Source: an uncultured virus (IMG/VR IMGVR_UViG_3300005253_000164) (Duplodnaviria > Heunggongvirae > Uroviricota > Caudoviricetes). From it: a stretch of DNA of 64,000 bases. Position 1 is the first letter of the stretch; every line of letters starts with the position of its first letter. The position numbers were made by a program, and so were the translations under genes. The notes beneath the pieces were generated by a model. It did no database searches, had not been told where the DNA came from, and saw only the letters and a list, made by a program, of their open reading frames with translations. Positions 2,193 to 64,000 of this stretch are shown here, piece after piece. Location: IMG/VR virus record IMGVR_UViG_3300005253_000164. One strand, 5' to 3'.

Positions 2193-2228
2193 TTAGTAAA
2201 AATATAAACAAAACACAGACTATTAAAA
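2193..2228 (+). promoter_or_regulatory. 36-bp promoter repeat, identical copy at 56964-56999
   Basis: TTAGTAAAAATATAAACAAAACACAGACTATTAAAA ~30 nt upstream of the ATG at both 2262 and 57027. Confidence 0.8.
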
Positions 2229-2261
2229 AGAGTATTTAAATATTAATTCAAGGAACTAACT

Positions 2262-3098
2262 ATGTCTAAAAGAACAAGACCTCACTATCAGAAATCCCAG
2301 AAAGGAAATGTTAGTAAAAGAGGTTCACCCAAAGGTAAAGTTACTCATAACATTTCAATTAATCCTAGGAAATGGAGAAAGAAAAAAACAGCTCCAACAA
2401 GACATGGGACTGAACTAATAGTAACTAAAGAGTATGCTCAAGCTCTTGCAGATATAAATGGACAAATTCTAGATATTAATAAGGAAATTAATGATTATCA
2501 AAGAAGAGGTGAGGCAACTCCCCAAGGGCTACTTGATGATAAAGCAAAATTAAAACAAGAAATCTTGCAGATCAGAGAGGATGTTCAAGAAGAATTAGAT
2601 TCTCATCCTATTAATAATGTTGAAATGAGAGAAAATCTTTCCACTTCTGAAATTATCGATGCAGTTGAAGAAAAACAGAAACCTATTATTCTTGAAAAAT
2701 TAGAAGCTACTAAGGTTCGCAGAGAGCATGAAAAGACAGGCAAAAAAGCTAAAGAAGCAGAAGCTAAGAAAAAGAAGGAAGGTGTCTCTGTTAGTGTTAC
2801 AGCACTCAAAACCTCTACGAAATCGATGACACCAGATCAAATCCACAACATCAATAGTGTTGTTGTAGCAATTCGTGATGATGGTCACTTTGGTACTTTT
2901 GATAGAAGGAATTCAAAACAATTCACAGACATAAAAACTGCTCTCGAAAAAACGTCTTTGACACAACAAATGATTAAAGACTTGAAGGCAGATGAACATT
3001 TAGCAGTCTCATACAATGAGAAGTCTAAGAAGTTTGGTTATGCGATTGATAAAGATGTATCGAAAGCAAAAGACCAAGCCAAATCCAGAGCAAGGTAA
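2262..3098 (+). CDS. Hypothetical coiled-coil protein with RxHY basic N-tail
   Basis: 278 aa ORF, starts MSKRTRPHYQK. Confidence 0.8.
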   Translation: MSKRTRPHYQKSQKGNVSKRGSPKGKVTHNISINPRKWRKKKTAPTRHGTELIVTKEYAQALADINGQILDINKEINDYQRRGEATPQGLLDDKAKLKQEILQIREDVQEELDSHPINNVEMRENLSTSEIIDAVEEKQKPIILEKLEATKVRREHEKTGKKAKEAEAKKKKEGVSVSVTALKTSTKSMTPDQIHNINSVVVAIRDDGHFGTFDRRNSKQFTDIKTALEKTSLTQQMIKDLKADEHLAVSYNEKSKKFGYAIDKDVSKAKDQAKSRAR

Positions 3099-3106
3099 GG
3101 CTAAAA

Positions 3107-3892
3107 ATGAGTCGCAGATCCCATTATCACAAAAATAAAGATGTAGTTTCCAAAAGAGGTAATTCCAGATCTACTTCTCACGAAGCACCTTGGTCCCCTT
3201 TCAAAAAGAAGGAAAAGAAGGAAAAAATAACCATTCGCAAAAAGAATGAAATTAGAGATCTTCCTTCTATGAAACAAGATCAAGTCGCATCGATATTAAA
3301 TTCATTAAAACCTCATAAAGATCTCCCAGAACAATCGATAGTAATTTCAGAGAAAAAGGGTATTATACTTCAAAAAGAAGGAAGGAATAAGGTAGTAACA
3401 TACGAACCTAAAGCATCAGAAGAACATGTTTATGCAGATCAACCAAAAAATACATTGTATGACATTCATACACATGGAGAGTGGTCAGTTCATTCTGCTC
3501 CAGACGTATTAGTTTTACTAAAATATCCTTCAGTAAAAGAATCAATATTGATGACACCAAAGGAGCATCCAAATGCAAGTAATTTGATTTATGTTCTAAG
3601 CAGAACAAATCTACCTGCAAGGAATAAAATAATCCCTGTTAATGATATAGATTTCGATAAGAAATTTCTGAAGGAATACAATGATGCAATGAAGGCAGGA
3701 AAGAAACACATTCGTTCCAAAAAGAATGCTGTTGATTGGTTTGATGATCCAACTCTTCGAGAAGGCTCTCTTGAAGATAAGGAAATGGCTGCCGAACTAA
3801 AAGGATTGGAACTATTGGGTAAACAATATGGTTTCAAAATTAGTGCCGCAGTTAGGGATACAACCCTAATAGATGAAGAGCTAATAATGTAA
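3107..3892 (+). CDS. JAB/MPN+-like metalloenzyme with RxHY N-tail
   Basis: Upstream Glu plus DIHTHGEWSVHSAPD resembles JAMM H-x-H-x(6-7)-S-x2-D. Confidence 0.55.
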   Translation: MSRRSHYHKNKDVVSKRGNSRSTSHEAPWSPFKKKEKKEKITIRKKNEIRDLPSMKQDQVASILNSLKPHKDLPEQSIVISEKKGIILQKEGRNKVVTYEPKASEEHVYADQPKNTLYDIHTHGEWSVHSAPDVLVLLKYPSVKESILMTPKEHPNASNLIYVLSRTNLPARNKIIPVNDIDFDKKFLKEYNDAMKAGKKHIRSKKNAVDWFDDPTLREGSLEDKEMAAELKGLELLGKQYGFKISAAVRDTTLIDEELIM

Positions 3893-21610: not shown

Positions 21611-21614
21611 TTTT

Positions 21615-25350: not shown

Positions 25351-25980
25351 ATGGTAGGACTATTATCTAGTCACATATCTAAACTTGGAGGTTATCGAAT
25401 CCCCTCGTTTAATTTACCATCAAAAAGAACATGCCCTGGCAGGACTGAACAATGTGTAAAATATTGTTATGCCACAAAAGGGCATTTTCTCTACGAGGGA
25501 ACTATGAATAAGTATGAACGGAATTTAATTGCTTCAAAGCAAGACGATTTTGTTGAAAAATTCACAAATGAATTATATTTGACAAATATATTTATTCGAA
25601 TTCATTCTTCTGGAGATTTCTACAACCAAGAATACTTTGACAAGATCTGTCAAGTAGCTAGAAAAAGACCAGATACAAAATTCTTAGCATACACTCGTAA
25701 TTATAGAATAAATATAAAGAATGCTCCACGCAATCTAATCCTATTCTATACGGTAGACAATTCGACAAAAACAATAAATCCAGATGCAAAACATTACGCA
25801 TTTGTGGAACATTTTGATGTAATTCCAGAACATGGAAGCAACTACAAAAATGGAATAATTTGTACAAGTAAAGACTGCTCTTCTTGTTTGAAGTGCTGGA
25901 ACAAACCTACAAATGTGTATTTCCCACAAAAGTACAAAAAATACAGTGAACGCTTGCTGGATTTATATGTCAACAGTTGA
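25351..25980 (+). CDS. Gp88-like (radical-SAM-like Fe-S) phage protein
   Basis: FNLPS..TCPG...C..YCYA, IRIHSSGDF, YTR and C-terminal CxxCxxC. Confidence 0.7.
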   Translation: MVGLLSSHISKLGGYRIPSFNLPSKRTCPGRTEQCVKYCYATKGHFLYEGTMNKYERNLIASKQDDFVEKFTNELYLTNIFIRIHSSGDFYNQEYFDKICQVARKRPDTKFLAYTRNYRINIKNAPRNLILFYTVDNSTKTINPDAKHYAFVEHFDVIPEHGSNYKNGIICTSKDCSSCLKCWNKPTNVYFPQKYKKYSERLLDLYVNS

Positions 25981-28217: not shown

Positions 28218-28283
28218 TTCAAAATAGATTTTGGAACGAGGTCTGGGTAATAATACATAAATATGATTTCAAATAACTCTCAT

Positions 28284-35378: not shown

Positions 35379-35854
35379 CAAGTAGACTAGAAAAACTATC
35401 GAAGATTGATCAGAGTGGTTTATCCGAAGATGTGTTAGATGCTCTTGAATCCCAGAAATATTGGGCTACAGTAAAACATATCGAAAACCATGGGAATAAA
35501 GGGAAAAAACATCCTTTTAGGACCAAGACAATAAAACACTCTGAAGAAGAAAGAAATAATCTCTTAAAAGCTGCAAGACATGAAATAATCATGGGATGTT
35601 TCACATCACAAATGATTAAAGATTTTTATAGAGAGACAACTCCAAATGGATCTGACAAGGGAACAAAAAGAACCTTTGAGGAAGATTACGAGAATGGAGA
35701 TGTTTTTCTATTAGATCCAATGTTCTGTGCAATTTATAGAGTCCTTCATCCGAATCTAAATACAAAAAACCAAAATAAGTTAGAAAACAATCCATTGTTA
35801 ATAATACTACGATGGTGTTGGAAATCTAAAAAAAAGGGTTTAGTGAAATATTAA
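35363..35854 (+). CDS. Hypothetical protein, close paralogue of 21615-22115
   Basis: Direct sequence comparison. Confidence 0.85.
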   Translation: MSNDITSRLEKLSKIDQSGLSEDVLDALESQKYWATVKHIENHGNKGKKHPFRTKTIKHSEEERNNLLKAARHEIIMGCFTSQMIKDFYRETTPNGSDKGTKRTFEEDYENGDVFLLDPMFCAIYRVLHPNLNTKNQNKLENNPLLIILRWCWKSKKKGLVKY

Positions 35855-47100: not shown

Positions 47101-49064
47101 ACTTTCAATTTATATATTCATCATCATTAATCAAATACTATGGATCATGGAAAATATTTTGGAAATGAAGAACTAAGTGATGGTGAAGTATGGTCACTAA
47201 TTGCATATTCTATTTTATTCATTATAGGCTTAATTATAATTTTTAGAAAATCACCTACAAAATACAAACTTGCAGACATATTAGTATTTCTTGGTTTGTT
47301 TTTAATTCTTGCCCAAAATACATATCATTTAGAACATGGTGAGCAATTGGAACAATATCAACTCATGGGTTACGCACTGATTTTCGGATTAATAAATTAC
47401 ATTGTTGGATGGGTTATGGCAAATAATGGATTTCCTGTGTCATTCATTGATCATAGTAAAGATGCATTCTATTGGTTTGGATTATTCTTGGTATTAGCAA
47501 CTATTATATTTGTCATGTTTGGCACATTTGATTCGGGATACCCAGGTAATCTTACTAATACTGAAAAATATATTGCTTATACTGGAATTGTAGGTGGTAT
47601 ATTATTACTGACATCCTATCTCGCTGTTAGAAGTAAAAAATAAATTTATATTGAATTTACAAATATTAGAAACATAAACTGAACTTTCAATTTATATATT
47701 CAACCCAGATATACAATTTATATGGCAAAGACAAAAAGCTCAGACATGTTTGGATTTATAGGAATCGCAATGGGATCAATGGCAATCGCTATGGCAGTAT
47801 TGAGGGCATTATTTGGTGAAAGTACCCTGTTTGATCTCTCAAAAGGAGCTTTCCTTGATGTTTCAGATGCAATCATAGTAGCAGTATTATTTTTTGGTGG
47901 AATTTTTATATTGGCTGTATCTGTTAAAAACAAAAAGAAAAATCAGATTGCAGTAGATACAATTGTTATAATTGTTATAATTGTGGTAATAAACCTACTC
48001 CTTGATGTTGAGTTTGATCTCTTCAATTTTTAAAACATAAACCGAACTTTCAATTTAAATAATCAGCAATGTTAACTAAATTGTGGATATTTTCATATCA
48101 GTCTATCTTATAATGGTTGCAGTCATACTTAAACCAAGACTTGAAAGAGTGATAAAGCGTATTCCAGAAAATTATTTGATTTGGTTAGCATTTTCTCCAA
48201 TTATTTTATACTTCCTAAGTTTCTACAATTGGTTATATGATAGTTACCTTTCAATTAGCTCAAGACAAATTGAATTTTCTGGTAGTGAAAGTCTGATTCA
48301 TCCAATAAATGCATTTATTTTTGTTACAATATCTTATTGGGTAGTAGGCTACGTGTTGTTGATATTCTATGAAAAGATAAAGGAGAGATCTACCAATGCC
48401 AAAAAAGAAACCTAAAACAATTAATGTTTCATACACATTATTATTCATATTATCTTGGTTTTTAATACCAAGTATTTACGCTTATACTGTAATTAACCAG
48501 ATATTTCTAGCAATAGGAATTACTGAAATTAATAAAAATATATACAGCTCGGTATTCATTGTTCTTGGAATAATAATAACAGCTTTCGTATTCTGGATAA
48601 GCAATTACAAAAGCAAGAAGTAAAACTTAAACAGAACTTTGAATTTTTAAATGAGATGAAATACTATTAATTATATGAAAAAAATGAGACTTTTGGGATT
48701 TTTTGTATCCATAGTTGGGATAATTTTCTATGCTATGGGTTTTCACGCTCTATTTTATGGAAGTAGTGGTCTATTTGAAAATATTGTGGATCAATTGGTT
48801 GATATTATTGCAATAGGTGGAACTCCATCTTCAGCGATAAATTATTCTATTGCAGTTGGATTGTTTTTAGTTGGAGCCTTCTTTATAATTGGTGGTGGAT
48901 CATTAATGCCAGATGTAAATAAGAACGTAACAAAGCTTTTCAAAACTTCGTTTATTGTGATAATTGTAATTCCTTTCGTAGTAATGATTTATAATTATGT
49001 AAACGATGTTGATTTTGATGTATTCAATTTATAAAAACATAAACAAAACTTTCAACTTTTAAAT
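47088..49064 (+). promoter_or_regulatory. Five copies of promoter motif AAAC(A/T)TAAACNRAACTTTSAAYTT(TATA-like) at ~47088, 47670, 48033, 48623, 49035
   Basis: Read directly; TATA-like part ~25 nt before each ATG; relatives at 2200, 40815, 56634, 56970, 63068. Confidence 0.85.
47140..49034 (+). CDS. Cluster of five small membrane proteins (47140-47643, 47722-48033, 48083-48415, 48396-48623, 48675-49034)
   Basis: 2-5 TM helices each; 47722 and 48675 share the C-terminal DVxFDxFN. Confidence 0.8.
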
Positions 49065-49088
49065 TCCAATAGTTTATTGGTATATGTA

Positions 49089-49808
49089 ATGCCTCGATCA
49101 AGTAAACGTATCTCCAATGAGAAGGCAATCGATGTGAAGGGAACGTCACTTAAAACAAAGACTTTACCCAGAAATATACTACCTGTTAAACATCATGCAG
49201 CAGCAGTTGCAACTGAACAGATAGTAATTTCCGATGAACACATTGCAGGGCTTCTTGAAGAGGGATGGACCAAGGAATCAACTTTTGAAACAGAGGTTTT
49301 AGAAGATATTTATCCTGGCTCTACTGATCATCATTTATTGAGTAAACATCTAAAAGCAAGAGGTTTTCGATTAATAAATGATCTACCAATGGAGTTAGAA
49401 GTTGCTATGCTGGATAAACAGAAATTAAAGGATGCAGATTATATATTCGAGTTATCCAGATCTGATGCAAAAGCCACTGTTCTGACGAGAACTGCTGAAA
49501 AATATACCAAAGCCCTACCCAGATACAATCCGAATGATCCCAACAATAATTTCTTTGGAAGAAGTTATGTGGTTGCTGTGATTGATGAATTTGGGAAAGT
49601 ATATGCTATATCTGTCTCACAAAATATACTAAGACAAATCCCAACTACAAAGAGAAAGGGGCGACCACAAACCAACCTTCACACATTCAATAATGCATAC
49701 AAAAAAGAAACTAAGAATGCAAGAAAGGCATATAGTCGCCAAGATACACAAGGCAGATATTCAAAGAATCGAAAAGATTATGTTGATGAGCTGCGAGGTA
49801 AAAAATAA
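49089..49808 (+). CDS. Hypothetical protein with basic N-tail
   Basis: MPRSSKR...RNILPVK; first gene of the coupled 49-54 kb operon. Confidence 0.75.
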   Translation: MPRSSKRISNEKAIDVKGTSLKTKTLPRNILPVKHHAAAVATEQIVISDEHIAGLLEEGWTKESTFETEVLEDIYPGSTDHHLLSKHLKARGFRLINDLPMELEVAMLDKQKLKDADYIFELSRSDAKATVLTRTAEKYTKALPRYNPNDPNNNFFGRSYVVAVIDEFGKVYAISVSQNILRQIPTTKRKGRPQTNLHTFNNAYKKETKNARKAYSRQDTQGRYSKNRKDYVDELRGKK

Positions 49809-50719
49809 TGAAAACTCGTAAACGCATTCTTACTAGTCCAAAAGGTAAGAAAAGAACCATTGATGTGAATTCTGGGACAAAGAAACCAATTAGGAAAAGC
49901 AATTTATTACCCCCACAATACACTATCAATATGACTCAACCAACAGGGAAGAACCGAATTCTTGTAAATCGAGGTGAAGTTCCTTATAGTGACATAATGT
50001 TCCATAAGGACCAAAAGAATTCTTCTTCATTAATAGTGAAAAGAAAATATCGTAAAAAATTCATCTCGGCAGGAATAATTGGAGAACCAGTTGGTCTTGG
50101 AGTTAGGAAAAAAGATAGGCAATTTGATAAGAATCCAACAAATTTTACAGTTAGTCCTTACGATATGATGTATGCCAATGAAATTGGTTTACTTGATCCA
50201 GAAACGATGTCAAGACGACAAGTAACCAGAGAATTAGAAAGATGGGGATTAAGACAGGATCCAGCTTTCTTTAACAAATATTCCTCTTATAAAAAGTTGA
50301 GAGATAATGGTTTCATAGTAATGAGTGGCCTTCAATATGGAGTTGACTTTGTTGCATATGATCTCACACCTACTGAATTTACTTCTAAAGAGATGAAGAA
50401 ACACAGTAAATATATGATTGATATTATGGATGAACCAACTCTTCACATGTCTAACATAATTAAAGGACTGGAAGAAGCTAAAGAAATCAATAAGGAATAT
50501 ATTCTCATGCAAGCAGGAGATACTAAACTATCCAAGAGGTACTTAGATCGCCCAACTGATAAAATTAGGTTCTACGCTATTGATGCAGAAGCACTTCTTG
50601 TGGATAATGAATATGATCTGGATGCTGTAATTATGAGGCGGATAAAGCAATCCAAAACATATCGGACTTTTCCAGTGGAAATTAGGGACACCTATGTGGA
50701 GTTAGATGACGATGAGTGA
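49808..50719 (+). CDS. endA: tRNA-splicing endonuclease-like protein, catalytic type
   Basis: KYSSYKKLRDNGFIVMSGLQYGVDFVAY...HSKYMI...EINKEYIL aligns to the EndA catalytic domain with the Tyr/His/Lys triad. Confidence 0.8.
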   Translation: MKTRKRILTSPKGKKRTIDVNSGTKKPIRKSNLLPPQYTINMTQPTGKNRILVNRGEVPYSDIMFHKDQKNSSSLIVKRKYRKKFISAGIIGEPVGLGVRKKDRQFDKNPTNFTVSPYDMMYANEIGLLDPETMSRRQVTRELERWGLRQDPAFFNKYSSYKKLRDNGFIVMSGLQYGVDFVAYDLTPTEFTSKEMKKHSKYMIDIMDEPTLHMSNIIKGLEEAKEINKEYILMQAGDTKLSKRYLDRPTDKIRFYAIDAEALLVDNEYDLDAVIMRRIKQSKTYRTFPVEIRDTYVELDDDE

Positions 50720-51656
50720 AAAACCAAAAAGAAAACATTATGCTAAAATTAAGAAGCGGATGTCTGCTAGAGGCACTACCGAGGCAATGAATAAACATTC
50801 TGGGAGATCATTTGAATCAAGTGCAATAAAACAAGCAAAGACCACTCAAAATACACGAATATGGAATTCAAGAAAACCAGAATTGATATATGGCCCATAT
50901 TTAGATAATAATTATATTCCACCTGTGATGAGGGAAGAATTAAAATTATTAGGTGTTCATTATCGTGTGGGAAGAGATACTCCCTATACTCCAGTAATTG
51001 CTATGGATCCATACAAAGTTTCAATACAAGAACTACATGACCATGGTATTGTTATTGAAATGAATAGACAAGATCGTCACAAATGGAGAATGTCTGGTTA
51101 TGATTTACTTCACATTCTAGAGAATAAACTAATCCAAGATAGTCCAATAAATGATCGCAGCTATGATGCATTCAGAAATTATATGGAAAGTCAAGATCCA
51201 GATTTCACAGAAAAATATTTTGTCTATAAAGAATTGAAGGAATCTGGTGCAATAGTTATGGATGCCACAATGCATGGTTATGACTTCATTGTGTATGAAG
51301 AACCAAGTGAGGACTTCATAAAAGAATTACAGAAAATTCCTATTGCAAGAATCGGAGCTAAGAAGAATCTTCCAGATAGACGTAAGAGTAGTTTTGCATC
51401 CATAAACGGTGTCGGATTGGTGACAGTAATGACTGCCGATAATGAATACACAGTGAAAGAAGTAATCAAAGCACAACACATTGCACAGAAGAATAAGATC
51501 AAATATCTTATGACTAATGCAGATGGGTATCATGATGAGGATGGGCATTTAGTTGTTCCAATAGAGAATTCGACCAAAGTATATGACACAAGACATATGA
51601 GGAAGAATTTAACTACTGCCAGAGGTAATGAAACAATTATTGGAACTGGTGAATAA
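50706..51656 (+). CDS. tRNA-splicing endonuclease-like protein, probably structural subunit; RxHY N-tail
   Basis: KYFVYKELKESGAIV...GYDFIVYE; catalytic His not evident. Confidence 0.7.
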   Translation: MTMSEKPKRKHYAKIKKRMSARGTTEAMNKHSGRSFESSAIKQAKTTQNTRIWNSRKPELIYGPYLDNNYIPPVMREELKLLGVHYRVGRDTPYTPVIAMDPYKVSIQELHDHGIVIEMNRQDRHKWRMSGYDLLHILENKLIQDSPINDRSYDAFRNYMESQDPDFTEKYFVYKELKESGAIVMDATMHGYDFIVYEEPSEDFIKELQKIPIARIGAKKNLPDRRKSSFASINGVGLVTVMTADNEYTVKEVIKAQHIAQKNKIKYLMTNADGYHDEDGHLVVPIENSTKVYDTRHMRKNLTTARGNETIIGTGE

Positions 51657-52846
51657 TGGGTAAAAATCGCAGATCTCACTATAAAAAGAAAGGAACAAAA
51701 GTGTCACACTATGCTCCACGATCATTAAAAGATGTGAAACCTATCAAGTGGGATCAGTTCGCAACTGATAAAGAGGGTAGAAAAGTAGCTCCAGAAACAA
51801 GGTTTGTTAGAGGGCAACATAACGATTACCATTCTTTATCATCCCCTAAAGGAAATAAAGGAATTGTTTACCCAAAACATTTTCCTAATCCAAATACAAT
51901 CATCATTGATGCAAACACAGATCACATAGACGTAAAAGTGATTATAGAGAATTTAGTTCAACATGGAATTGATCCAGATGAAATAAGACAAGATTATGAA
52001 GAAACATTTTATTTAACTTCTTTAATAAGGGGAGTTCTGGTTAATGGTGGTGTCAGAGAGATAAAAGTGTTTGGTGAAACAATCAAAACTGAAGAATCTG
52101 TAATTGAACGCTATGATCGCTTAGAGACACTTGGTTTGACTGATATGGTCATTGATGCACAATATAATACAATTATGGATCTGATAGAATTAGCAGATGG
52201 TAAATTGGCAACAGATGTTTCTCTCCAATATAAGACAATAGAGAAAACAAGAGGAATGGTCCCTGTCATTGATGCGTCTAATTATACCACAGATAATCTA
52301 GATGATCGACCACTGACACATATTTTCAAAAATTATTTTGGTCAACCTGGATATGATATAAACGAGAATCTATATTTAGTTGCAGCTAAAATAATAAATC
52401 TTGTTTATGGATTACAGTCTGCAATGGAACAAGCTGAACGTAAGGCACTTCCAGAACAAGCTGAAGAACAAGCAAAAGAATCTGCTGAAATAATAGAAAA
52501 AACTCAAGAAGATCTATCAAAGATAATCTTCGAGGCATATCAAAAAGAAACTACTATTAAGGAAAAAGGTAGAAAAACTTCTGTTAGAATTGAAGAGCCA
52601 TCAGAATTAACAAGTAAAGAGCAAAGGACTGCTCAAAGAATATTTGAGAAACCTCAAGGTGTAGATTTATTATCTGAACTAGACAAAGCTCTTGAGAAGT
52701 TGACTGTTTCAGAAGAAATAATCATCCCAGAAGAAATAATCAAGGAAAAGAGAATTGGTTCTAGTTTTGAGAATTTAGAATCAGTTGAAGAAATCCTTGA
52801 TAATTGGGAGCCTCCTGTAAGAAAAGAAAAGGAGGAATCTGAATGA
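51656..52846 (+). CDS. Hypothetical RxHY-tail protein with MIM-like C-terminal module
   Basis: C-terminal block shared with 52843. Confidence 0.8.
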   Translation: MGKNRRSHYKKKGTKVSHYAPRSLKDVKPIKWDQFATDKEGRKVAPETRFVRGQHNDYHSLSSPKGNKGIVYPKHFPNPNTIIIDANTDHIDVKVIIENLVQHGIDPDEIRQDYEETFYLTSLIRGVLVNGGVREIKVFGETIKTEESVIERYDRLETLGLTDMVIDAQYNTIMDLIELADGKLATDVSLQYKTIEKTRGMVPVIDASNYTTDNLDDRPLTHIFKNYFGQPGYDINENLYLVAAKIINLVYGLQSAMEQAERKALPEQAEEQAKESAEIIEKTQEDLSKIIFEAYQKETTIKEKGRKTSVRIEEPSELTSKEQRTAQRIFEKPQGVDLLSELDKALEKLTVSEEIIIPEEIIKEKRIGSSFENLESVEEILDNWEPPVRKEKEESE

Positions 52847-54441
52847 GACGACAACACTATAAGAAATCTGGTGATAAAGCCAGAAAGATGAAAGGCAATT
52901 CCAAAAAACCTGTTCATAGAAATAGAGTTATTCATCGTGTGGATCAAGGCCAATATATCTCCAACAATTTTTTAAATTCAAATGATATAGATGGAGATTT
53001 CTTCAGCTCTTCTGAAGAGGCAACCATTAAAAACAGACAAATGATCCGCCCAAAAATATTCGACATTTTAACTGGTGATGCTATAACTATTTTGAAAAAC
53101 TCCTATCCCACCAATAGAGATAGACACTTAACCCAGATTAATGAAGAATTAAATGAACAATTCAATCTGGCAACAAGTGAGCAGAAGGGTTGGGTTAAAC
53201 TGGAACTATTTATAACCCCCTCTGACCAATTACAATTCAATCTGACCTTATTTGGTGGAGATGAGGATGATACTTCAGAGGATAATTTACAAATAATTTT
53301 TGAAGAATTAGAAGATCCTCTGAACCTACATTATAAAGAGCAATTCTTCAAAAATTATGCCGAGCTACCATCTCTTGATATATTTAAAGATGAAATGGAT
53401 CAGAATATAGAAAAATCAGTTGCTTCAATTGTTAATGATCTAGATCCATCAATGTATGAACAAATGAAAACTGATGAAGGAGAGCCAATTCCCAACGCTT
53501 ATGGTCCAGCCCCAATGGTAATGCTTGCATATGAGACAGGACAAGCACCAACATATGCTGCTGAGTTAGAAAAATTAATAGATCCAGGTGCAAAGAAAGA
53601 GGGAATTAGTCCACCTAAAACAATGGCAATAACTACTTATCAAGCAATAGTAAGATATGTTGACATGCGAAATGAAGAATTAAGAGACTGGACTGATATG
53701 CATAATGAAGTGTATTTCAGGGGTTGGTATATGAATAATTTGGATTATACCCCTCTTGCAGAGGCATTTAATGCAGAATATAATAAACAAATAGATGGGT
53801 TATATGAACAACTAGTCGAGGATACTCCCAACGGAATAAATCTTCCCGAAGACGATCAAGTAACTGAAGATGGGATAATTGATAGTTTTATTGACATAAC
53901 AGGAGTCACACCTGTTTTCAAATATCATACAGATGAATATGGCAAAAATTTGGGATTATTTGATGAGGAAACAGGGAAACTTATCACATTGGGAACCATA
54001 GATGCCTTCATTAATGAAATTATAGCACATGGAGTTATGGGTGGATTACCTAAGATGGATATGGATGGGCAATACTTACGTAGACAAACTCCTTCCCCTG
54101 TTAGTAAAAAGACAGCAAGAAGAATATTTGATGAAAAATCTGAATTAACCAATAAAGAACGAAGGACTGCTCAAAGAATATTTGAGGAACCAACAGGTAT
54201 TGATTTATTGTCTGAATTAGATAAAGCACTAGAAAAGTTGAATGTTGTAGAAGCAAAACCAAAAATCAGAGAAAAGGCAAAGGAAAAACCTAGAAGGGAA
54301 AGATCTGCTTTTGAAAACATATCTACTGAAAAATCTGCATTTGAAGGATTAGAATCAATTGATGACATTCTTGACGATTGGGAAATTCCAGTAAGAGAAA
54401 AGAAATCAAGAGAGAGTGTAAAAGAAAGAGAAAAAATTTAA
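52843..54441 (+). CDS. Acidic hypothetical RxHY-tail protein with MIM-like C-terminal module
   Basis: C-terminal block shared with 51656. Confidence 0.8.
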   Translation: MRRQHYKKSGDKARKMKGNSKKPVHRNRVIHRVDQGQYISNNFLNSNDIDGDFFSSSEEATIKNRQMIRPKIFDILTGDAITILKNSYPTNRDRHLTQINEELNEQFNLATSEQKGWVKLELFITPSDQLQFNLTLFGGDEDDTSEDNLQIIFEELEDPLNLHYKEQFFKNYAELPSLDIFKDEMDQNIEKSVASIVNDLDPSMYEQMKTDEGEPIPNAYGPAPMVMLAYETGQAPTYAAELEKLIDPGAKKEGISPPKTMAITTYQAIVRYVDMRNEELRDWTDMHNEVYFRGWYMNNLDYTPLAEAFNAEYNKQIDGLYEQLVEDTPNGINLPEDDQVTEDGIIDSFIDITGVTPVFKYHTDEYGKNLGLFDEETGKLITLGTIDAFINEIIAHGVMGGLPKMDMDGQYLRRQTPSPVSKKTARRIFDEKSELTNKERRTAQRIFEEPTGIDLLSELDKALEKLNVVEAKPKIREKAKEKPRRERSAFENISTEKSAFEGLESIDDILDDWEIPVREKKSRESVKEREKI

Positions 54442-54484
54442 ACAATTCACATACTTATTAAAATAGTATTGTAAATCTAACTTA

Positions 54485-55948
54485 ATGTCAAAAAGACCTC
54501 ACTTCTCAGTCGATCAATCCAAGTCAAAGGCATCGAAGAAGAATCCAAAGAAAATTAAAAAACAAAGGTCTAATATACTCACTCCTAAGAAGATAAAATC
54601 AAACATAAAACAATCTGCATTGAGGGCAAGACAACAATATTCCAATAAAAATTATTACACTGCAATTGAGGGATTAGGTGATGCTCTTGGAATGTACGAT
54701 GATTTAATTGATCAACTATATTCAGACAAAATATTATCTGATGGTCAGAGAAAGGATTTTCTTTCTCAATTCCAAAGAGAAAAGGATAAACTTGATGATA
54801 GAATAGAAAAAATCCAAGATAAACTAGTTGAACAAGGCGATGAGATAGCAATAATTGATCCTCAAAATAAATTTGCTCCTTTAATTACTACAAGAGACAA
54901 AATTGAAGAATTTCCAGATGTTGAGGATGTAATAGGGAATGATCATATGAAGACTTCGCTGTTACAGAATATAAAATTAGCTCAAACTAATCCTTTGATT
55001 GCAAAACAATTAGGAATTGGTAAGAATTATCTAATGTTTGGTCCACCAGGGACAGGAAAGACATTACTTGCAAAAGCATTTGCAAAAGAAACAGGTATAA
55101 ATTTCATGAATATAGAATCTGCCAATGTTTTGTCAGAGAACTTTGGAGAATCAGAGAAGAATCTGAAAGGTATATTCGCATTCGCCAGAAAGAACAAACC
55201 TACATTCATGTTCTTTGATGAGATAGATCAACTAGCTGGAACCAGATCTGGGAAAGAAGCAGGAGCAGAAACCAGAGTAAAAACCGCATTTCTGGCAGAA
55301 GTATCAGGTTTCGCAAGTGAAAATGAGGATGTATATATATTGGGGTCAACAAATCGACCTTGGGCTTTAGATCCAGCATTCAGATCAAGATTTACTGTTC
55401 AGAAGTATGTGGGCTTACCAACTCCAGAAGAAATAGGTATAATGACAAAGAGAATGCTAGAAAATCCAGAATTCCAAGAAGATTTAGTAAAAACTAAGGA
55501 TCTGGATTATGATGAACTTGGTCAATTAATGAAGGGGTATGCTGGAAGAACTGTCACAGAGAGTATCGTACAAGAGATTAGACTGATACCAATTCATGAA
55601 CAGATTGCCAAGACAGGAATTTTGGATTTGACAAAAACAAGACCTATTACTATGGCTGACTTTAGGAAGAAAATAAAGGAAACACCTAAAGCAACATCTG
55701 CTGCTGAATTGAAGAAATATGCAGAATATCGGACAGAAATGGGTGAAACTCTGGATGAGGAAGAGCCAGTTGTCATTGATACGAGAAAAGTTGTAAGAGT
55801 CGGAACTAGTAGTCGAGGTACTGTCAAGGGTTTATACAAAACAATGGCAGGGGCAGAAGATGCTAAAGATAAGAGAGGCGGAAGAGATGAGATCTATCCA
55901 GTCAAGGGAGGATGGAAAATTAGACGACCAAAAAAAAAGGTGAATTGA
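54485..55948 (+). CDS. vps4: Vps4/CdvC-like meiotic-clade AAA ATPase with putative MIT domain
   Basis: GPPGTGKT, GESEK, FFDEID, RVKTAFL, GSTNRPWALD, Vps4_C-like PITMADF...LKKYAEYRTEMG; three-helix MIT-like N-region. Confidence 0.75.
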   Translation: MSKRPHFSVDQSKSKASKKNPKKIKKQRSNILTPKKIKSNIKQSALRARQQYSNKNYYTAIEGLGDALGMYDDLIDQLYSDKILSDGQRKDFLSQFQREKDKLDDRIEKIQDKLVEQGDEIAIIDPQNKFAPLITTRDKIEEFPDVEDVIGNDHMKTSLLQNIKLAQTNPLIAKQLGIGKNYLMFGPPGTGKTLLAKAFAKETGINFMNIESANVLSENFGESEKNLKGIFAFARKNKPTFMFFDEIDQLAGTRSGKEAGAETRVKTAFLAEVSGFASENEDVYILGSTNRPWALDPAFRSRFTVQKYVGLPTPEEIGIMTKRMLENPEFQEDLVKTKDLDYDELGQLMKGYAGRTVTESIVQEIRLIPIHEQIAKTGILDLTKTRPITMADFRKKIKETPKATSAAELKKYAEYRTEMGETLDEEEPVVIDTRKVVRVGTSSRGTVKGLYKTMAGAEDAKDKRGGRDEIYPVKGGWKIRRPKKKVN

Positions 55949-56328
55949 AAACACCATCACTAATAACTGAAAAATATTTACGTAATAATAAAAATAAAAT
56001 ATTTGTTTTCGGAGACAATTTAGATCGTAAAGGAAAAGGAGGAGCAGCTAAATTAAGAGATGAAAAGAATACTTATGGATTTATTACCAAGAAACATCCT
56101 AGATCCAACGATAGTGACTTCTATACTCCAGATGAATATAAGGAAGTCTATAATCTAGAAATCATAAAACTGAAAAAAGAAATTTCTGCCAATCCAGAAA
56201 AAACATATTTAATATCGAACATTGGTGGGGGCTTAGCAAACAGGTTTGATATTAAGAAAGAGGTTATTGATAAAAATCTAAAAAAAGATTTAAATAAATT
56301 CAATAACATAGAATTTTTAGAAGAGTAA
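55945..56328 (+). CDS. Phage A1-like/macro-like domain protein
   Basis: IFVFGDN...GKGGAA...YGFITK...IGGGLA. Confidence 0.55.
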   Translation: MKTPSLITEKYLRNNKNKIFVFGDNLDRKGKGGAAKLRDEKNTYGFITKKHPRSNDSDFYTPDEYKEVYNLEIIKLKKEISANPEKTYLISNIGGGLANRFDIKKEVIDKNLKKDLNKFNNIEFLEE

Positions 56329-56387
56329 AAAGAAATAAAATATCAATAAATTAAAAAGATTTAAAAACATTAACTATACTATTAATC

Positions 56388-56967
56388 ATGCAAGAAAAAC
56401 TAAAATTACATTTAATGCATTTGAAAGGCATTATTTGGGGCATACCAATATTATATATTTATTCATTATTTATAGAGGCTTTCATCATTAATCCATTACA
56501 ATTAGACAAAAGACTTTTCGGGTTCATATACTTTTTTGGATTTTTATTATTTATTTTTATATTTGTAAAGGTACTAATATTATTATTGAAAGATTTGAAA
56601 TATTGGGTTAATCAGTTTAGAGAATTTGAATGGAAAAACATAAACAAAACATAGACTATTAAAATCTCATTAAAATAGTATTACTTGATCTAAGATGATA
56701 TTAACAAAATTAATGAAATATAAAGAATACACCTGGTGGTCTAGCGAGAGAAAACTGGTAGATAGTTGGAAATCATTTGGTTATTTATTCCTAACATGGT
56801 TATTATTTAACTTAATAACATTCTGGATTGTATCTTTAACTATCAGTCCTAAACACTTAGCACTTAGTGGGATTATAGCCATCATCATATGGACATTATT
56901 CCCTCACTACAAAATCATCCACAGATATATTAGCAGTATAGAGAAATCGAATGAAAATAATCTTTAG
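56388..56967 (+). CDS. Two 2-TM membrane proteins (56388-56654, 56695-56967)
   Basis: Hydrophobic hairpins; second preceded by the AAACATAAAC motif. Confidence 0.75.
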
Positions 56968-56999
56968 TAAAAATATAAACAAAACACAGACTATTAAAA
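56964..56999 (+). promoter_or_regulatory. Copy of the 36-bp promoter repeat (2193-2228)
   Basis: Identical sequence. Confidence 0.8.
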
Positions 57000-57026: not shown

Positions 57027-57575
57027 ATGCCAGAGAAACGAGGTCACTACATTCGTAAGAAAGGTGGTAAAGTAAGGAAAAGTTCGGGAGATAAAAAATC
57101 TACCCAACATAATTATTTACCTCCTGTTAAGAATGTTCCAGATATAGTTATTCAAGAGGACACAATACTGTTTTCTGATGATGAACGTAAAACAATCTGG
57201 TCAGTGACTAAAACATCAATTGTGAAAGATGAGGATATACTTGCAGATAATGAGGAAATAATCCTTGATGCAGTAATTAAGATGCCATTGGATATTGATT
57301 CTCAAAGTGATATTGGAGAGAAATATGAACTATATTATCTTGAAATAGTAAAATTTCATGCTTATTCCGAACATATGGAATTAGGTGGAGATTCATCTAC
57401 TATCAAGAAACTATCTTCAATATCTAAAAGACAATCTGTACTGAATGCAGAGATAGAAGAGATAATTAATTCAGAACCAGATTTGTCGAATCGAAATGAA
57501 TCACTAAAAATCCATAACCAAACAAAATTATTGTTAAATAGCAATGTAAGAAATCTTTTTGAGATAGGTGATTAG
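57027..57575 (+). CDS. Hypothetical RxHY-tail protein
   Basis: MPEKRGHYIRKK. Confidence 0.8.
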   Translation: MPEKRGHYIRKKGGKVRKSSGDKKSTQHNYLPPVKNVPDIVIQEDTILFSDDERKTIWSVTKTSIVKDEDILADNEEIILDAVIKMPLDIDSQSDIGEKYELYYLEIVKFHAYSEHMELGGDSSTIKKLSSISKRQSVLNAEIEEIINSEPDLSNRNESLKIHNQTKLLLNSNVRNLFEIGD

Positions 57576-57576
57576 A

Positions 57577-60500
57577 ATGGAAAAACGAACACATTACAAG
57601 AAACTTGATACCAAGGTGACGAAAGCAGGGAAAAATAAAAAAGTAAAAAATATGTCTCCTGTCATTCATGAAGCATTTCTCTCAAGAGAGAACATTTCAG
57701 ATCATAATCCATTAAGGTCACATCCAGATACAGATTTACAAAAATTATTCTCGGAGAATGGTAAAGCATTTACAAATGTAATTTATCAGAAAGAAGGCGA
57801 TCCGCTTTATGAGAAGATCCTGGATAATGTAATACTTGGTCAATTAAAAACTACACTGAATATTGAAGCCAGTAGTAATACTTTCTCTGTTGGTGTAAAA
57901 CCTAATGATGATGATTTAATATTAACTGAAAGTCAGATGGAAAATCTGATTGGGGTTCTTTTGAGAAAGAATCCAGACGCAAAGAAACTAAACGCTTTGG
58001 ATAAATTAAATCGTATTAATAGGAAACAAAGAAAATTACAACAAGGTTTTTCCAATGCAGGTTTTGGTCATAAAGATTTAACTAAAATCGCAAAAGAACA
58101 AGAGGAAATTCTTACTCTCATAAAAGATTATCAGAAAAAGAATAATGATCGTGAAATTGGTGAACTTTCTTCTTTTGATAAGATAAAACTGAAACAGAAG
58201 AAGAAGCAAATTCTCAACAAATTAACAAGATTACCCGATAAGCTAAAGGAAGCAATGCTTAGTTATGATGATTATATTTCAACAGATGGTTCAATCCCTA
58301 AACATGAATTTAGTGGTGTCGATCTTTCAAAATTAGATTTCTGGTTAGGTTCAGAAAACATCGAAATGTTTGATAAAATTCTTTCAGATGTTGAAAAAGA
58401 ACAGGATAAGAAACTAAAAAATATTGAAAAAGGGGATGAAGATAAACTCATAACTCGTTTTGGTATCTTAACAGATGACGCTACACTTATTGCTCAATTA
58501 TCAACAATAGATGATAATTTATCTTTACTTATGGAAGAAGAAGCCAATCCCACTTATATTTTAGGCATTGGAAATCCGCAACCTGCATATGAATTAGTTG
58601 ATGGGACAGATAGGACTAGATATTTAAGTTCATTAACTGAGATTAAAGAAAAAATTGGGGATTTAACAGGAGTTGCATTACCTTCTGATGATGATAATAT
58701 TTCCCCAAATCCAAATTTAGGGGAGATAAAAATATCTGGTGAGACAGATCTAGCTAATGCAATCAATGAGCAGAGTTTAAGATTGTCCAAATATGGTCGA
58801 TCAATAACCGATTCAAGGAGAAGTCACAAGAGAGTGATAATTGATCCAACAACTGGAGAGTATATGGTTAAGGCCATAGATCAGAAATCTGGAGTAATTA
58901 TTTCTTATAATAGTGCAAATGATTTATTATTTGGTTCTGCTAAACCATTTGAAGAAAGAGCAGCAGTATCAGAGTCATTAGCCTCCCAGAATTCTCCACT
59001 AAAAGCTTTGAATAGCCTAGTTAACTCATTGATAAATGGATCTATTAAAGATTATGATTTTAGTGGTTTCCCCTCTGGAAGAATAATTACAGATGCAGAA
59101 GTTGCAGAGCTAAAAGCATTAATTGAACACTTAAGAGGGGCAGGATATTCTGATGATTTGATTTTTGACTTTATTTCTGGTGCAATTGAGATTGATTTAA
59201 TTCAAGATACTTATATTCATGGAATAAATCTTTTAGTAGAATTAAGAGATATTTATCGATTGATTAGTAGTGAAGCAATCTATATTGCAAAAGAGAAATC
59301 TAGAGAAGATATTTCTTCAAACGTATTTGATAGTGAAGAATGGGCAATGTATTTTGGTGGAGAAAATGCAATTGAGCAGATGAGAGAGCTTTATGATTTT
59401 AGAACCACTGTTAGCAATGAAACACCATATATGGATGTTATCGCATATGGTGAGGAATTAGGGTTATTCAGAGTATTAGACAGGGATGAAGACGGTTATC
59501 CAAGAAAAGTTTATTCCGAACTTGATAAGAGAACAATAGAAGCAAAAGATATGCCAGATTCAATTTTAAGAAAACAATTCTTTATTGATCGGATCTATGT
59601 TGCTCTTGATGTTTTATCTGATGATAAACTAAAATTGGATCCCCAAACAAAAGAAACTTATCAGAAAAGGGCGATTGATTATCAAGTTTCTAATTGGTCA
59701 AATGAGGATGTGATGCTACAATCAAGTTTCTTTGGTGTTCCAGTATTAAATACTAATGAGGCAGCAAAACAAAGAATGAATGCAATCTCAAAACTATCAG
59801 CTATAGAAATAAAGGAAATGGTTGATGAAAATCCCCTTCTTTACAATGGATTGAAACAATTAGGTATAGATCCAGATGGAGATATTACTGAACTCTATGA
59901 GGGGGTAAAGAAGTATTTTACACAAATAGTTCTATCTGAAAGTTCAGAACGTACTCTTACCAAATTCAATTCTGCTAGAAGTAAGGGAGATGCTAAACAG
60001 GCATTCATTGCAGCAGAAAAACTTCGAACAAGTGCAACAAGAATTGATGAAGTAACCCCAACATTGCAGAAATTGGGGGCATTACATGGTGTTAGAAGTT
60101 ATCTTAATCAGCTTCCTTCCCAAAAAATAGTGGGTAAAAGTGGGAGTTTCACCAGAAAGATAGATGTTAAAGACAAAGAGACTGGTAAAACTTATACATA
60201 TTATGTTAAATATCGACCAACTAGAGCAGGCGAAAAAATTGAAGAGATAAGAAAAATAGATAGTTATCTCAAAGATTACCTGCCTGCTGAATACGATGAA
60301 ATGTTAAATGATCCCAAATTCAAAGCTCTCACCAGAGATAGGGTTAATGAGACAAGAAAATCCCAAAATGACAGAATGCAAGCGTTGACTGAATACTATG
60401 GAGAAAAAGCTCACTATTTGCTATTGGATCTTGAAAAAGAAGATCTTAGAATTCAAAAAGATGCAAATTCTATAAAGATAATGCAATTAGAATTGTTAAA

Positions 60501-61404
60501 AGAGGTTTACAAATCAAAATTGAACAATGATGATAAGAGCACATTCGATCCTTATGATATATTTGGGGCAATTCAAAAAGAGAAAACATTCCAAATAAGC
60601 AAAGCAGAACTCCAAGGTAAATTCAAAGAGGACGTATTCAAAGCAAATGAATTGAAATATGGTTTTGACAGTGATCTTTTTGCAGATCTGACCTACGACA
60701 AATCTGGACAGCCTCTCGGAGATACCCCTAAATTAGTCAGTAAAGACTTGAAAGATTTGATTAAGGGATTTGATCAAAAGAGGAAATCCGAGATTTCTAG
60801 TGAAACCAAAGCAACAATCAAGATACCAACTGCAGAATCTCCTAAAAAGAGTCCTTTGATAGTAACACCTAAATCTGGAATTGGAAGTGCTAAGAGAAAC
60901 TTTGTTACTGTATCAAATAGGTTTTCTACTCATTTAACCCGAACAGAAAACAAATTGATGAAGAACAAGCCCAGAGTTAGAAAACCAACTCCTGCTGAAA
61001 AAGAATTGATTGGAGAAATAGATGAGACAATCAAGGTCCTCAAAACTTCAAAGATGAAAATCAAAAAGTTGGCAACATCAGAGTATTCAGAAGATGCAAA
61101 CATTAAATTGATCGGTGAATTAAATATAGCTGATCAAACCTTGAAAACACAACTGAATTCTCTAAGTGAAACTTTACCACAAAAGAATATTGGAGCAGAC
61201 GACTTCAATAAGTTAGATAGTAAGGATGCACAACTTTTTACTAGAGAAGAGATGAAGGTAAGAGGTGCAACTGATGAATCAATAAATAATTTTTATTCTA
61301 AGTTTACAAATATTAAACAAAGAGATTTATATCGCTTAATGCAAGATATTATTGAAGAAAGAAAGGATTTAGGAATTCTTTCTAATAGTGTGATTAAACA
61401 ATGA
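57577..61404 (+). CDS. 1275-aa helical hypothetical protein with RxHY tail
   Basis: ATG 57577 follows GGTGA SD; MEKRTHYKK. Confidence 0.85.
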   Translation: MEKRTHYKKLDTKVTKAGKNKKVKNMSPVIHEAFLSRENISDHNPLRSHPDTDLQKLFSENGKAFTNVIYQKEGDPLYEKILDNVILGQLKTTLNIEASSNTFSVGVKPNDDDLILTESQMENLIGVLLRKNPDAKKLNALDKLNRINRKQRKLQQGFSNAGFGHKDLTKIAKEQEEILTLIKDYQKKNNDREIGELSSFDKIKLKQKKKQILNKLTRLPDKLKEAMLSYDDYISTDGSIPKHEFSGVDLSKLDFWLGSENIEMFDKILSDVEKEQDKKLKNIEKGDEDKLITRFGILTDDATLIAQLSTIDDNLSLLMEEEANPTYILGIGNPQPAYELVDGTDRTRYLSSLTEIKEKIGDLTGVALPSDDDNISPNPNLGEIKISGETDLANAINEQSLRLSKYGRSITDSRRSHKRVIIDPTTGEYMVKAIDQKSGVIISYNSANDLLFGSAKPFEERAAVSESLASQNSPLKALNSLVNSLINGSIKDYDFSGFPSGRIITDAEVAELKALIEHLRGAGYSDDLIFDFISGAIEIDLIQDTYIHGINLLVELRDIYRLISSEAIYIAKEKSREDISSNVFDSEEWAMYFGGENAIEQMRELYDFRTTVSNETPYMDVIAYGEELGLFRVLDRDEDGYPRKVYSELDKRTIEAKDMPDSILRKQFFIDRIYVALDVLSDDKLKLDPQTKETYQKRAIDYQVSNWSNEDVMLQSSFFGVPVLNTNEAAKQRMNAISKLSAIEIKEMVDENPLLYNGLKQLGIDPDGDITELYEGVKKYFTQIVLSESSERTLTKFNSARSKGDAKQAFIAAEKLRTSATRIDEVTPTLQKLGALHGVRSYLNQLPSQKIVGKSGSFTRKIDVKDKETGKTYTYYVKYRPTRAGEKIEEIRKIDSYLKDYLPAEYDEMLNDPKFKALTRDRVNETRKSQNDRMQALTEYYGEKAHYLLLDLEKEDLRIQKDANSIKIMQLELLKEVYKSKLNNDDKSTFDPYDIFGAIQKEKTFQISKAELQGKFKEDVFKANELKYGFDSDLFADLTYDKSGQPLGDTPKLVSKDLKDLIKGFDQKRKSEISSETKATIKIPTAESPKKSPLIVTPKSGIGSAKRNFVTVSNRFSTHLTRTENKLMKNKPRVRKPTPAEKELIGEIDETIKVLKTSKMKIKKLATSEYSEDANIKLIGELNIADQTLKTQLNSLSETLPQKNIGADDFNKLDSKDAQLFTREEMKVRGATDESINNFYSKFTNIKQRDLYRLMQDIIEERKDLGILSNSVIKQ

Positions 61405-63128: not shown

Positions 63129-64000
63129 ATGAGAAGATACGTTATTGCACTGTCATTCATAATTTTAATTGCGAGTACCATGACTTCAATTCAACCTGTG
63201 AAAGTAAAAGGAATAGAAGGATGTTATATTATTGGAGAACCGATAGTTATTCAAAATAATAATGATTTTAGTGATTTATGTTTTAATGGAGATGGAACTT
63301 TTAACAGTCCATACAGAATTGAGAATTATAATATAAATAAGGAAGGCGTATCGAGTATTTCAATTATGGGGACAACAGATTATTTTGTCATTAGAAATTC
63401 TACGTTCTCAAGCATAGTGATGTGGAATGTTCAAAATGGGTATATAGTTAATAATACCATTAAAGGAAATTATGATTATTATATAAGTCCGATTAATGGT
63501 AGGAGGCACTCTACTGGTGTGGATATTGGTTCCGATCTATATGGCAAAAGAGAAAGGACAGTAAATATTGTAATCTTGAATAATACTATTATAAATCATT
63601 TAAATGGAATTCGTGCTATAACAGAAACTCATGGTGAGATAATTGATTGCATTATATCATCAAATTCTATTAAAAATAATAAAAATTATGGATTGATAGG
63701 TATTAATGATGCACACATATTGGTTAGATATAATAATTTTATCAATAATACTAAGCAAGCAATTTATGATGGGGAAGATAACCCTGGTTTGTTTGAATAT
63801 AATTATTGGGATGATCATACACAACCCGATGAAAACAATAATGGGATTGTGGATACTCCTTATGAGATCAGCTATTCTTTAGAATATGGCACTAGAACTT
63901 ATGATTATCATCCTCTAACAGAACCTAATGGTGAGATTGAACGTGAAGTTCGAGAGCAACTACCACCTCTTGATACCACATTTACACCTGCCTCACCAGT
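63129..64000 (+). CDS. Secreted NosD/CASH beta-helix protein (runs off window end; absent from track)
   Basis: Signal peptide MRRYVIALSFIILIAS; GDGTFNSPYRIEN, I.NN.I repeats, NYWDDH..PDENNNGIVDTPY. Confidence 0.75.
   Translation, partial: MRRYVIALSFIILIASTMTSIQPVKVKGIEGCYIIGEPIVIQNNNDFSDLCFNGDGTFNSPYRIENYNINKEGVSSISIMGTTDYFVIRNSTFSSIVMWNVQNGYIVNNTIKGNYDYYISPINGRRHSTGVDIGSDLYGKRERTVNIVILNNTIINHLNGIRAITETHGEIIDCIISSNSIKNNKNYGLIGINDAHILVRYNNFINNTKQAIYDGEDNPGLFEYNYWDDHTQPDENNNGIVDTPYEISYSLEYGTRTYDYHPLTEPNGEIEREVREQLPPLDTTFTPASP

Follow-up and report, generated by a model that had tools for sequence, protein, structure and literature searches.

Two proteins with a common C-terminal module upstream of a Vps4-like ATPase

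The IMG/VR record IMGVR_UViG_3300005253_000164, assigned to an uncultured virus of the Caudoviricetes, is represented by 64,000 nucleotides (hereafter, the window) of a virus-like ORFan stretch from a marine-sediment archaeal metagenome. The G+C content is ~32% across the whole window, and nearly every open reading frame (ORF) from ~2.2 kb onward lies on the + strand. Three consecutive genes on this strand are of particular interest. Two of them encode ORFan proteins of 396 aa (P0241; 51656..52846) and 532 aa (P0242; 52843..54441), hereafter the cassette proteins, and the third encodes a divergent AAA+ ATPase of the Vps4/CdvC family (P0001; 487 aa; 54485..55948; Pfam AAA, 1.6e-35). The coordinates of the three ORFs agree with those given in the original prediction, which had been made from the sequence alone. 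[quoted passage not shown]

The 396-aa protein consists of an N-terminal basic RSHY box, a variable middle domain and a conserved C-terminal module (residues 316-396; 52601..52843, + strand) which carries a net charge of -10 over 81 residues. The 532-aa protein combines an N-terminal RQHY box and an unrelated middle domain with the same module, which begins at about residue 422 (54106..54438, + strand) and within which the alignment reveals internal duplication of the TA(R/Q)RIF and SAFE(N/G) motifs. The module tails are acidic and helical. The common C-terminal blocks had been recognized in the original prediction and were recovered here both in the alignment and by BLASTP (59 of 111 positions, or 53%, identical; E 7e-24), but the accompanying statement that the two proteins share nothing else did not hold, because a second BLASTP high-scoring segment pair corresponds to the N-terminal R-x-H-Y box. 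At the DNA level, the core of the module forms a 129-nt repeat (52590-52718 and 54128-54256) with 81% identity. By the Nei-Gojobori method, synonymous divergence is high and nonsynonymous divergence low in both conserved blocks (dS 0.72 and dN 0.13 in block 1; dS 0.75 and dN 0.26 in block 2), although these estimates rest on small samples of 40 and 21 codons, respectively. This pattern points to a module that is held by purifying selection rather than being a fresh copy.

Neither cassette protein reached the cut-off of a Pfam family or matched a PHROGs family, and the ESM Atlas provided no usable feature match for either of them, with Atlas models at pLDDT (predicted local distance difference test) values of 0.36-0.37. 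A PDB sequence search with the module returned nothing below E 0.03. When the module profile was compared with 1.84 billion representatives, four proteins were retrieved, corresponding to the two clusters of the window proteins, to P0244, a 382-aa ortholog of the 396-aa protein encoded on a 97-kb contig, and to a protein of a beetle; the latter contains 16 repeats, and we took it for a repeat-inflated chance match. P0243, encoded on another contig, is a near-identical copy of the 532-aa protein. No loci were found for the 532-aa protein among the viral contigs of IMG/VR.

Family placement of the ATPase and its altered parts

The ATPase has intact Walker A and B, sensor and arginine-finger positions: G186-T193, D245-E246, N290 and R302 are invariant in the alignment with 27 homologues. 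The closest full-length relatives with a single classical AAA domain are Asgard Vps4 proteins of 384-408 aa with the MIT+AAA+Vps4_C architecture, which are 38-41% identical to the ATPase over 91-95% of the AAA module; at source, some of these carry the names Lokiarchaeota, Sigynarchaeota or 'vacuolar protein-sorting-associated protein 4'. In the search with the AAA module, 16 full-length MIT-bearing Vps4 rows scored 144-174 bits per domain, and two further matches, shorter and partial, reached 96 and 108 bits. The corresponding values were 101-133 bits in Cdc48 D1 and D2, 120-125 bits in Sulfolobales CdvC and 94-106 bits in PAN. In the whole-protein search, two-domain Cdc48/p97 proteins ranked first only because their totals are sums over both domains; a Cdc48 domain taken singly contributed ~104-113 bits, versus 144 bits for a single Vps4 chain. 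Consistently, the best NCBIfam model is that of CdvC (NF041006; 1e-49), which aligns in one stretch (query residues 39-416 against profile positions 9-365 of 370) and scores 169.4 bits, above CDC48 (132) and PAN (115) but far below its own equivalog cut-off of 650 bits.

Vps4-type proteins characteristically lack an insert of two residues (PG) ahead of the second arginine in the second region of homology (SRH). The insert is missing from the ATPase, from all 13 MIT-Vps4 rows and from both Sulfolobales rows, which are unnamed 'ATP-binding proteins' that we take to be CdvC, whereas it is present in all Cdc48 D1 (8/8), Cdc48 D2 (8/8), PAN (5/5) and TPR-AAA (4/4) rows. The particular 'FRS-RF' form of the SRH seen in the ATPase recurs in 6 of the 13 Asgard rows. 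Similarly, K266-T267 of pore loop 2, part of an R-x-K-T motif common to the ATPase and Asgard Vps4, is conserved in 13/13 MIT-Vps4 rows but missing from every Cdc48, PAN and Sulfolobales row, with L-Q at these positions in the two Sulfolobales rows; thus, all 21 Cdc48 D1/D2 and PAN rows carry the PG insert and lack K-T. The Pfam Vps4_C family (PF09336) matched at 18.7 bits (E 0.0018), below the cut-off of 21.3. The Vps4_C helix region aligns column for column with that of the homologues, and helix 406-418 was modelled at pLDDT >85. The alignment-guided full-length model, with a mean pLDDT of 67.7 and an AAA core mostly at 70-94, had fidgetin-like 1, spastin, Vps4 and Metallosphaera Vps4 as its top fold matches, with p97 close behind. 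Indeed, Cdc48/p97 and PAN share the classical AAA fold with nearly equal fold E-values, but differ from the ATPase in their lower per-domain scores and in that the ATPase contains only one AAA domain and no Pfam match to CDC48_N or Prot_ATP_ID_OB. In a quick maximum-likelihood (ML) tree of 63 rows, the ATPase fell on the Vps4/CdvC/katanin side, away from Cdc48 and PAN and without joining crenarchaeal CdvC. Because the per-domain scores, the NCBIfam result, the SRH indel, the K-T pair and the fold matches agree, we file the ATPase with the Vps4 type, in line with the identity proposed from the sequence. With weak support from the tree, it appears to be a new, strongly modified and divergent representative of this clade that a virus-like element encodes.

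Classical AAA motors encoded by viruses are already known, as is evident from the IMG/VR loci and from BFVD. Among the BFVD fold matches to the ATPase are proteins from giant viruses and hytrosaviruses that bear the annotation Vps4, spastin or 'vacuolar sorting' ATPase. Like the ATPase, the giant-virus proteins are virus-encoded classical AAA ATPases, but the identity to it is 13-27% among the 50 matches listed. The best 80 IMG/VR loci retrieved with an alignment as query, many from giant-virus bins, contain 81 AAA ORFs; an SRH pattern scored 56 of these as having the PG insert and 2 as lacking it, and failed on the remaining 23. No close relative of the ATPase or of the cassette proteins was found among the viral contigs of IMG/VR, nor among phage records, where the best tblastn match was 31.5% identical over 58% of the query. 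In the papers searched, we found no description of a Vps4-type gene in Asgard viruses or archaeal ORFan elements; passages of two papers (PMC8813620; 10.1101/2021.07.29.454249) mention only RFC-like and ParA-like ATPases.

Several parts of the ATPase depart from the Vps4 pattern. Pore loop 1 (55133..55147, + strand) reads S-E-N-F-G instead of S-K-W-(L/F)-G, confirming the earlier remark that this loop is altered (E218-N219-F220). The position of the Asn is aromatic in 60 of 62 other AAA rows (W 37, Y 16, F 7), and that of the Glu is occupied by K in 55, M in 6 and R in 1 of them, with no acidic residue in any; all 13 Asgard Vps4 rows have K-W-L/F. An arginine collar is described in PMC7240154. 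The corresponding positions of the ATPase are R254, T263 and R264, that is, Arg in two out of three; position 263 is Arg in 11 and His in 2 of the 13 Asgard rows. The ATPase further differs from Asgard Vps4 in its location within an ORFan gene array, in a polybasic N-terminal tail of ~50 residues (net charge +16 over residues 1-50) and in a basic C-terminal extension of ~66 aa (55745..55945, + strand; net charge +6). The extension is absent from all 27 aligned homologues, which end after the C-terminal helix, and was poorly modelled (pLDDT <50 over 423-476), with two short low-confidence strands at 469-480.

After the basic tail, at the position of the MIT domain in Vps4, lies a helical N-domain (residues 34-116; 54584..54832, + strand). 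The original prediction regarded it as MIT-like and the tails of the cassette proteins as mimics of the MIT-interacting motifs MIM1 and MIM2, so that the ATPase and the cassette proteins would form a private Vps4-substrate pair. The helical nature of the region was borne out by both fold models, but its likeness to MIT was not. Even with the threshold relaxed to E<=10, Pfam MIT (PF04212) had no match in the first 135 residues; comparison by hhalign with an Asgard profile built from 18 MIT domains yielded a probability of 0.8%; and a hidden Markov model built from 22 archaeal Vps4/CdvC N-termini scored the real N-domain at 1.4 bits, with 208 of 1000 shuffles scoring as high. A PDB sequence search with the N-domain returned nothing below E 0.03. 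The unbiased single-sequence AlphaFold model of residues 41-140 is a hairpin of two long helices (mean pLDDT 67), for which Foldseek found no matches at E<=0.001 and MITD1 only at E ~3. The alignment-guided full-length model, by comparison, has helices at 34-51, 57-80 and 86-116 (pLDDT 48-75), but is not independent, because MIT-bearing homologues are part of its alignment. Judging by sequence comparison and by these two models, which disagree and are both of modest confidence, the identification of the N-domain as MIT is not supported.

The tails fare similarly. The MIM1 consensus is (D/E)xxLxxRLxxL(K/R), and the MIM2 core is hydrophobic-P-x-hydrophobic-P. Neither strict pattern occurs in the two tails, and the reading of the stretches LDKALEKL and WE(P/I)PV as MIM mimics is not supported. 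Among the 111 ATG-initiated ORFs of at least 60 aa in the window, strict MIM1 has no match, and the single match to the MIM2 core falls in an ORF unrelated to the cassette genes. The tails do show the loose L...L..L spacing, but 17 of the 111 ORFs have it. Two features recall ESCRT-III/CdvB: an amphipathic helix that is conserved and whose Leu residues follow a 4-3 spacing, and, close to the C-terminus, a stretch that contains Pro. However, the consensus is unmatched and the motif positions differ, the Leu helix being located ~45-65 residues before the C-terminus rather than at the end. Furthermore, Snf7 is not among the Pfam matches at E<=0.01 for the proteins encoded at 51656 and 52843, and was not found by PHROGs either, so by sequence the carriers are not ESCRT-III-like. 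No test applied here supports the MIT-MIM mechanism. What speaks for it is the occurrence of a helical domain of ~80 residues at the right position, with helices of MIT-like lengths in the alignment-guided model, the alignment of the CdvC NCBIfam model from query residue 39 (profile position 9) and the conserved Leu helix of the tails; given the lack of MIT signal in three sequence tests, the two-helix hairpin without a significant fold match and the absence of MIM patterns, we consider it unlikely.

The same evidence bears on a further scenario, in which the ATPase would act on, or poison, the ESCRT-III/Vps4 machinery of the host, for example by forming mixed hexamers or stripping filaments, and thereby control division or budding. 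The closest relatives of the ATPase are indeed cellular Asgard Vps4 proteins, and Asgard Vps4 is reported to bind ESCRT-III by MIT-MIM contacts (PMC7240154). A subunit that is dominant-negative or has been re-targeted would be in keeping with the change in pore loop 1. Yet, with only 41% identity on a very long branch, this is not a recent capture, and the N-domain lacks an MIT signal although such a domain is needed to bind host MIMs. A hijacking or decoy role is accordingly a distinctly improbable one.

Signals common to the gene set and the possible role of the ATPase

The genes starting at 49077, 49808, 50706, 51656 and 52843 form a chain with junction overlaps of 1, 14, 1 and 4 nt, the last being the overlap of the start of the 532-aa gene with the stop of the 396-aa gene. 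The ATPase gene begins after a gap of 43 nt downstream of the 532-aa gene. Ahead of the overlapping chain (49077-54441) stands a promoter-like box, ACATAAACAAAAC (49037..49049, + strand). Its 13-nt core has 11 occurrences, compared with 3.5 expected, and follows the consensus A(C/T)ATAAAC(A/T)(A/G)AAC, located ~45-60 nt upstream of small membrane-protein genes and of operons encoding R-x-H-Y-box proteins. The sites include 2202-2228, 40817, 47090, 47672, 48035, 48625, 49037, 56638-56664 and 56973-56999. The box precedes five small membrane-protein genes upstream of the chain (47140-49034) and another one at 56695. A 27-mer at 2202 is repeated at 56973 and, with two mismatches, at 56638, which makes three occurrences against 0 expected; 100 shuffles produced no matches. 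The copy at 56973-56999 heads an operon (57027..61404, + strand) for two R-x-H-Y-box proteins of 182 aa and ~1275 aa, and the distant copy at 2202-2228 is followed by the R-x-H-Y-box proteins encoded at 2262 and 3107 (2202..3892, + strand). Further intergenic repeat families occur at other gene blocks, namely D2 at 5130, 16346, 21547, 22680 and 33826, and D3/D4 at 5.8-8.4 kb. The association of separate repeat families with separate gene blocks suggests temporal promoter classes.

The R-x-H-Y box itself extends beyond the cassette proteins. The motif [KR]xH[YF] occurs within the first 20 residues of 8 of the 111 ORFs, as opposed to ~1.7 expected if it were evenly spread, and in all eight carriers (gene starts 2262, 3107, 50706, 51656, 52843, 54485, 57027 and 57577) it lies within the first 12 residues. 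The ATPase is among them, with R-P-H-F as its version of the box. A net charge of at least +8 in the first 30 residues characterizes seven of the eight box proteins as well as those encoded at 3905 and 49808. For a co-regulated set of proteins, the basic box may act as a signal in targeting, packaging or recognition.

A sister element is available for comparison. Contigs of run X4 from a second study were mapped on the 47-62 kb part of the window and revealed a mosaic. The segment 48993-51662 has 151 differences in 2670 nt. The following 51.66-52.62 kb, corresponding to the middle domain of the 396-aa protein, has no X4 match at >=80%, a result that should be read alongside the comparison of the proteins: P0244 and the 396-aa protein are 61% identical over residues 1-30, 31% over 31-299 and 94% over 316-396. 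Segment 52624-54182 is ~87% identical, with 178 nt replaced. Over the ATPase gene (54439-55936) there are 16 differences in 1498 nt, and P0240, encoded on the contig of P0244, is 98% identical to the ATPase at the protein level, compared with 86-94% identity for the neighbouring genes in the sister element. The next 697 nt (55937-56633), which contain a DUF7831/phrog_2072 gene and a gene for an 88-aa membrane protein with two transmembrane segments, are absent from X4 at a clean joint, and the rest up to 62 kb is ~90% identical. The search of genome contigs with P0244 found none. As judged from the mosaic pattern of X4, the module and the ATPase are kept while the neighbouring parts vary.

We tentatively favour the reading that the ATPase is an element-private remodelling motor which acts on the co-encoded cassette proteins through one shared end, a reading to which we give slightly less than an even chance. 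Gene overlaps, the common promoter-like box and the R-x-H-Y box, which includes the ATPase, suggest that the set is co-regulated. The ATPase would form a hexamer, and the hexamer would remodel, unfold or release element-encoded proteins of the set during assembly or egress. The handle would be one shared terminus: the basic box at the N-terminus or else the module at the C-terminus.

In a bolder version, the ATPase would be the core of a private, ESCRT-III-free Vps4 system, in which a substrate channel with Glu-Asn instead of Lys-Trp, and with an arginine collar that has been weakened, grips the polybasic R-x-H-Y N-termini (net charge +9 to +11 over the first 30 residues) by which many element proteins would be tagged, and the acidic module of the two cassette proteins serves as an adaptor or release signal. 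We regard this version as improbable; if true, a virus would have evolved a tagging-and-unfolding pathway from a Vps4 scaffold of eukaryote type, and this in an organism related to the ancestor of eukaryotes.

In a different role, the module could dock both cassette proteins to a third structure unrelated to the ATPase; a scaffold of the virion or of a vesicle, a membrane protein and a host factor are examples. The ATPase would then belong to the same late block but act on other substrates or on host ESCRT-III. Surface or effector proteins that are anchored and evolve fast usually combine one conserved end with a variable middle part, and this is how the cassette proteins are built. Furthermore, the box stands ahead of small membrane proteins both upstream and downstream, and the spacer before the ATPase gene sets it apart from the module genes, which overlap their neighbours. 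Conversely, no candidate third partner was identified, and it is the module and the ATPase that are both kept in the sister element while their neighbours vary. Overall, docking to a third structure is a possible explanation, albeit a doubtful one.

Several points weigh against a private motor for the cassette proteins. First, the position of the ATPase in the tree is weak (SH-aLRT [Shimodaira-Hasegawa-like approximate likelihood ratio test] 87; terminal branch 2.07). The ML topology came out in favour of Vps4, whereas a tree in which the ATPase was forced to group with Cdc48/PAN was not rejected by the approximately unbiased test (delta lnL 4.65, p 0.29). Second, loss of the pore-loop tryptophan could, from the sequence, mean a weak or non-threading motor. 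Third, what links the ATPase to the cassette proteins is neighbourhood, common regulation signals and conservation. Fourth, ~99% nucleotide identity of the ATPase gene with several amino-acid changes may reflect recent recombination rather than constraint. Finally, neither the borders of the element nor capsid, portal, terminase, integrase or ESCRT genes were recognized in the window, the latter by Pfam, PHROGs and NCBIfam; because no structural, integrase or ESCRT gene was recognized, the words 'virus' and 'egress' are unproven. These points notwithstanding, a Vps4-family motor with a rebuilt substrate loop and N-domain on a virus-like element, next to proteins with conserved ends in common, would offer a natural experiment in motor re-targeting, and the ATPase may provide a first handle on the assembly or cell exit of mobile elements in these archaea. 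At present its value is that of a well-defined target for biochemistry, with a predicted function.

Gene content of the window and nature of the element

Among the 60 proteins outside the three genes considered above, four have a Pfam family: a PrsW-family protease fragment (177-755) and a TnpB/IS605 OrfB-type transposase gene product (792-1979), both on the - strand, a second AAA protein of 711 aa (10227-12362; AAA domain at residues 425-551) and a GP88-family protein (25351-25980). PHROGs matches added two PAPS-reductase-like proteins (phrog_424; 20461-21549 and 28263-29348), phrog_1392 and phrog_2072/DUF7831. No tRNAs were found in the window, and the tandem-repeat scan revealed nothing within the three genes. 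The second AAA protein, the PAPS-reductase-like proteins and GP88 are phage-type accessory genes and as such support the virus-like nature of the region. The PrsW and TnpB genes are located just left of the one-strand ORFan array and may mark the left border of the element.

Most likely, the region, which is low in G+C, has its genes on one strand and is almost wholly composed of ORFans, belongs to a gene array of a virus-like or otherwise mobile nature. It might instead be a chromosomal island of lineage-specific genes, with the ATPase as a divergent cellular paralogue rather than a mobile gene. This would agree with a G+C content that does not vary along the window, even at the left end, where PrsW and TnpB are encoded, with the failure to find an integrase, a tRNA or an attachment (att) site, and with the lack of a recognized structural virus gene. 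By contrast, a one-strand array of ~100 ORFans with several intergenic promoter-like repeat families, the presence of PHROG-type genes, the existence in another study of a sister copy whose mosaic structure involves replacements the size of genes and the 697-nt deletion, and the restriction of all homologues found to few contigs are all difficult to reconcile with such an island, which we hold to be very unlikely.

The overlapping gene chain that leads to the cassette proteins also encodes two adjacent paralogues with basic N-termini and a catalytic domain resembling that of tRNA-intron endonucleases (49808-50719 and 50706-51656, + strand). They match Pfam PF01974 (3.7e-15 and 1e-06) and each other (E 5e-10), whereas the endA model TIGR00324 gave 47.5 bits, below its cut-off of 59.6. 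An element-encoded EndA-like pair is unusual, and the two proteins might cut host tRNAs or bulge-helix-bulge sites.

Two additional features lie away from these genes. A 300-nt direct repeat with 91% identity (21639-21938 and 35378-35677) is located within the paralogous genes 21579-22115 and 35363-35854, each of which is preceded by the same 59-nt intergenic repeat. Close to the right end of the window, the ORF at 63129-63998, which has no end within the window on its 3′ side, starts with a segment like a signal peptide and weakly matches NosD-type beta-helix proteins (NCBIfam, 5e-08, below the cut-off). The sequence upstream of it resembles the promoter-like box by eye, although it is absent from the 11 pattern matches. 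This ORF may provide the element with a protein that is secreted or located at a surface.

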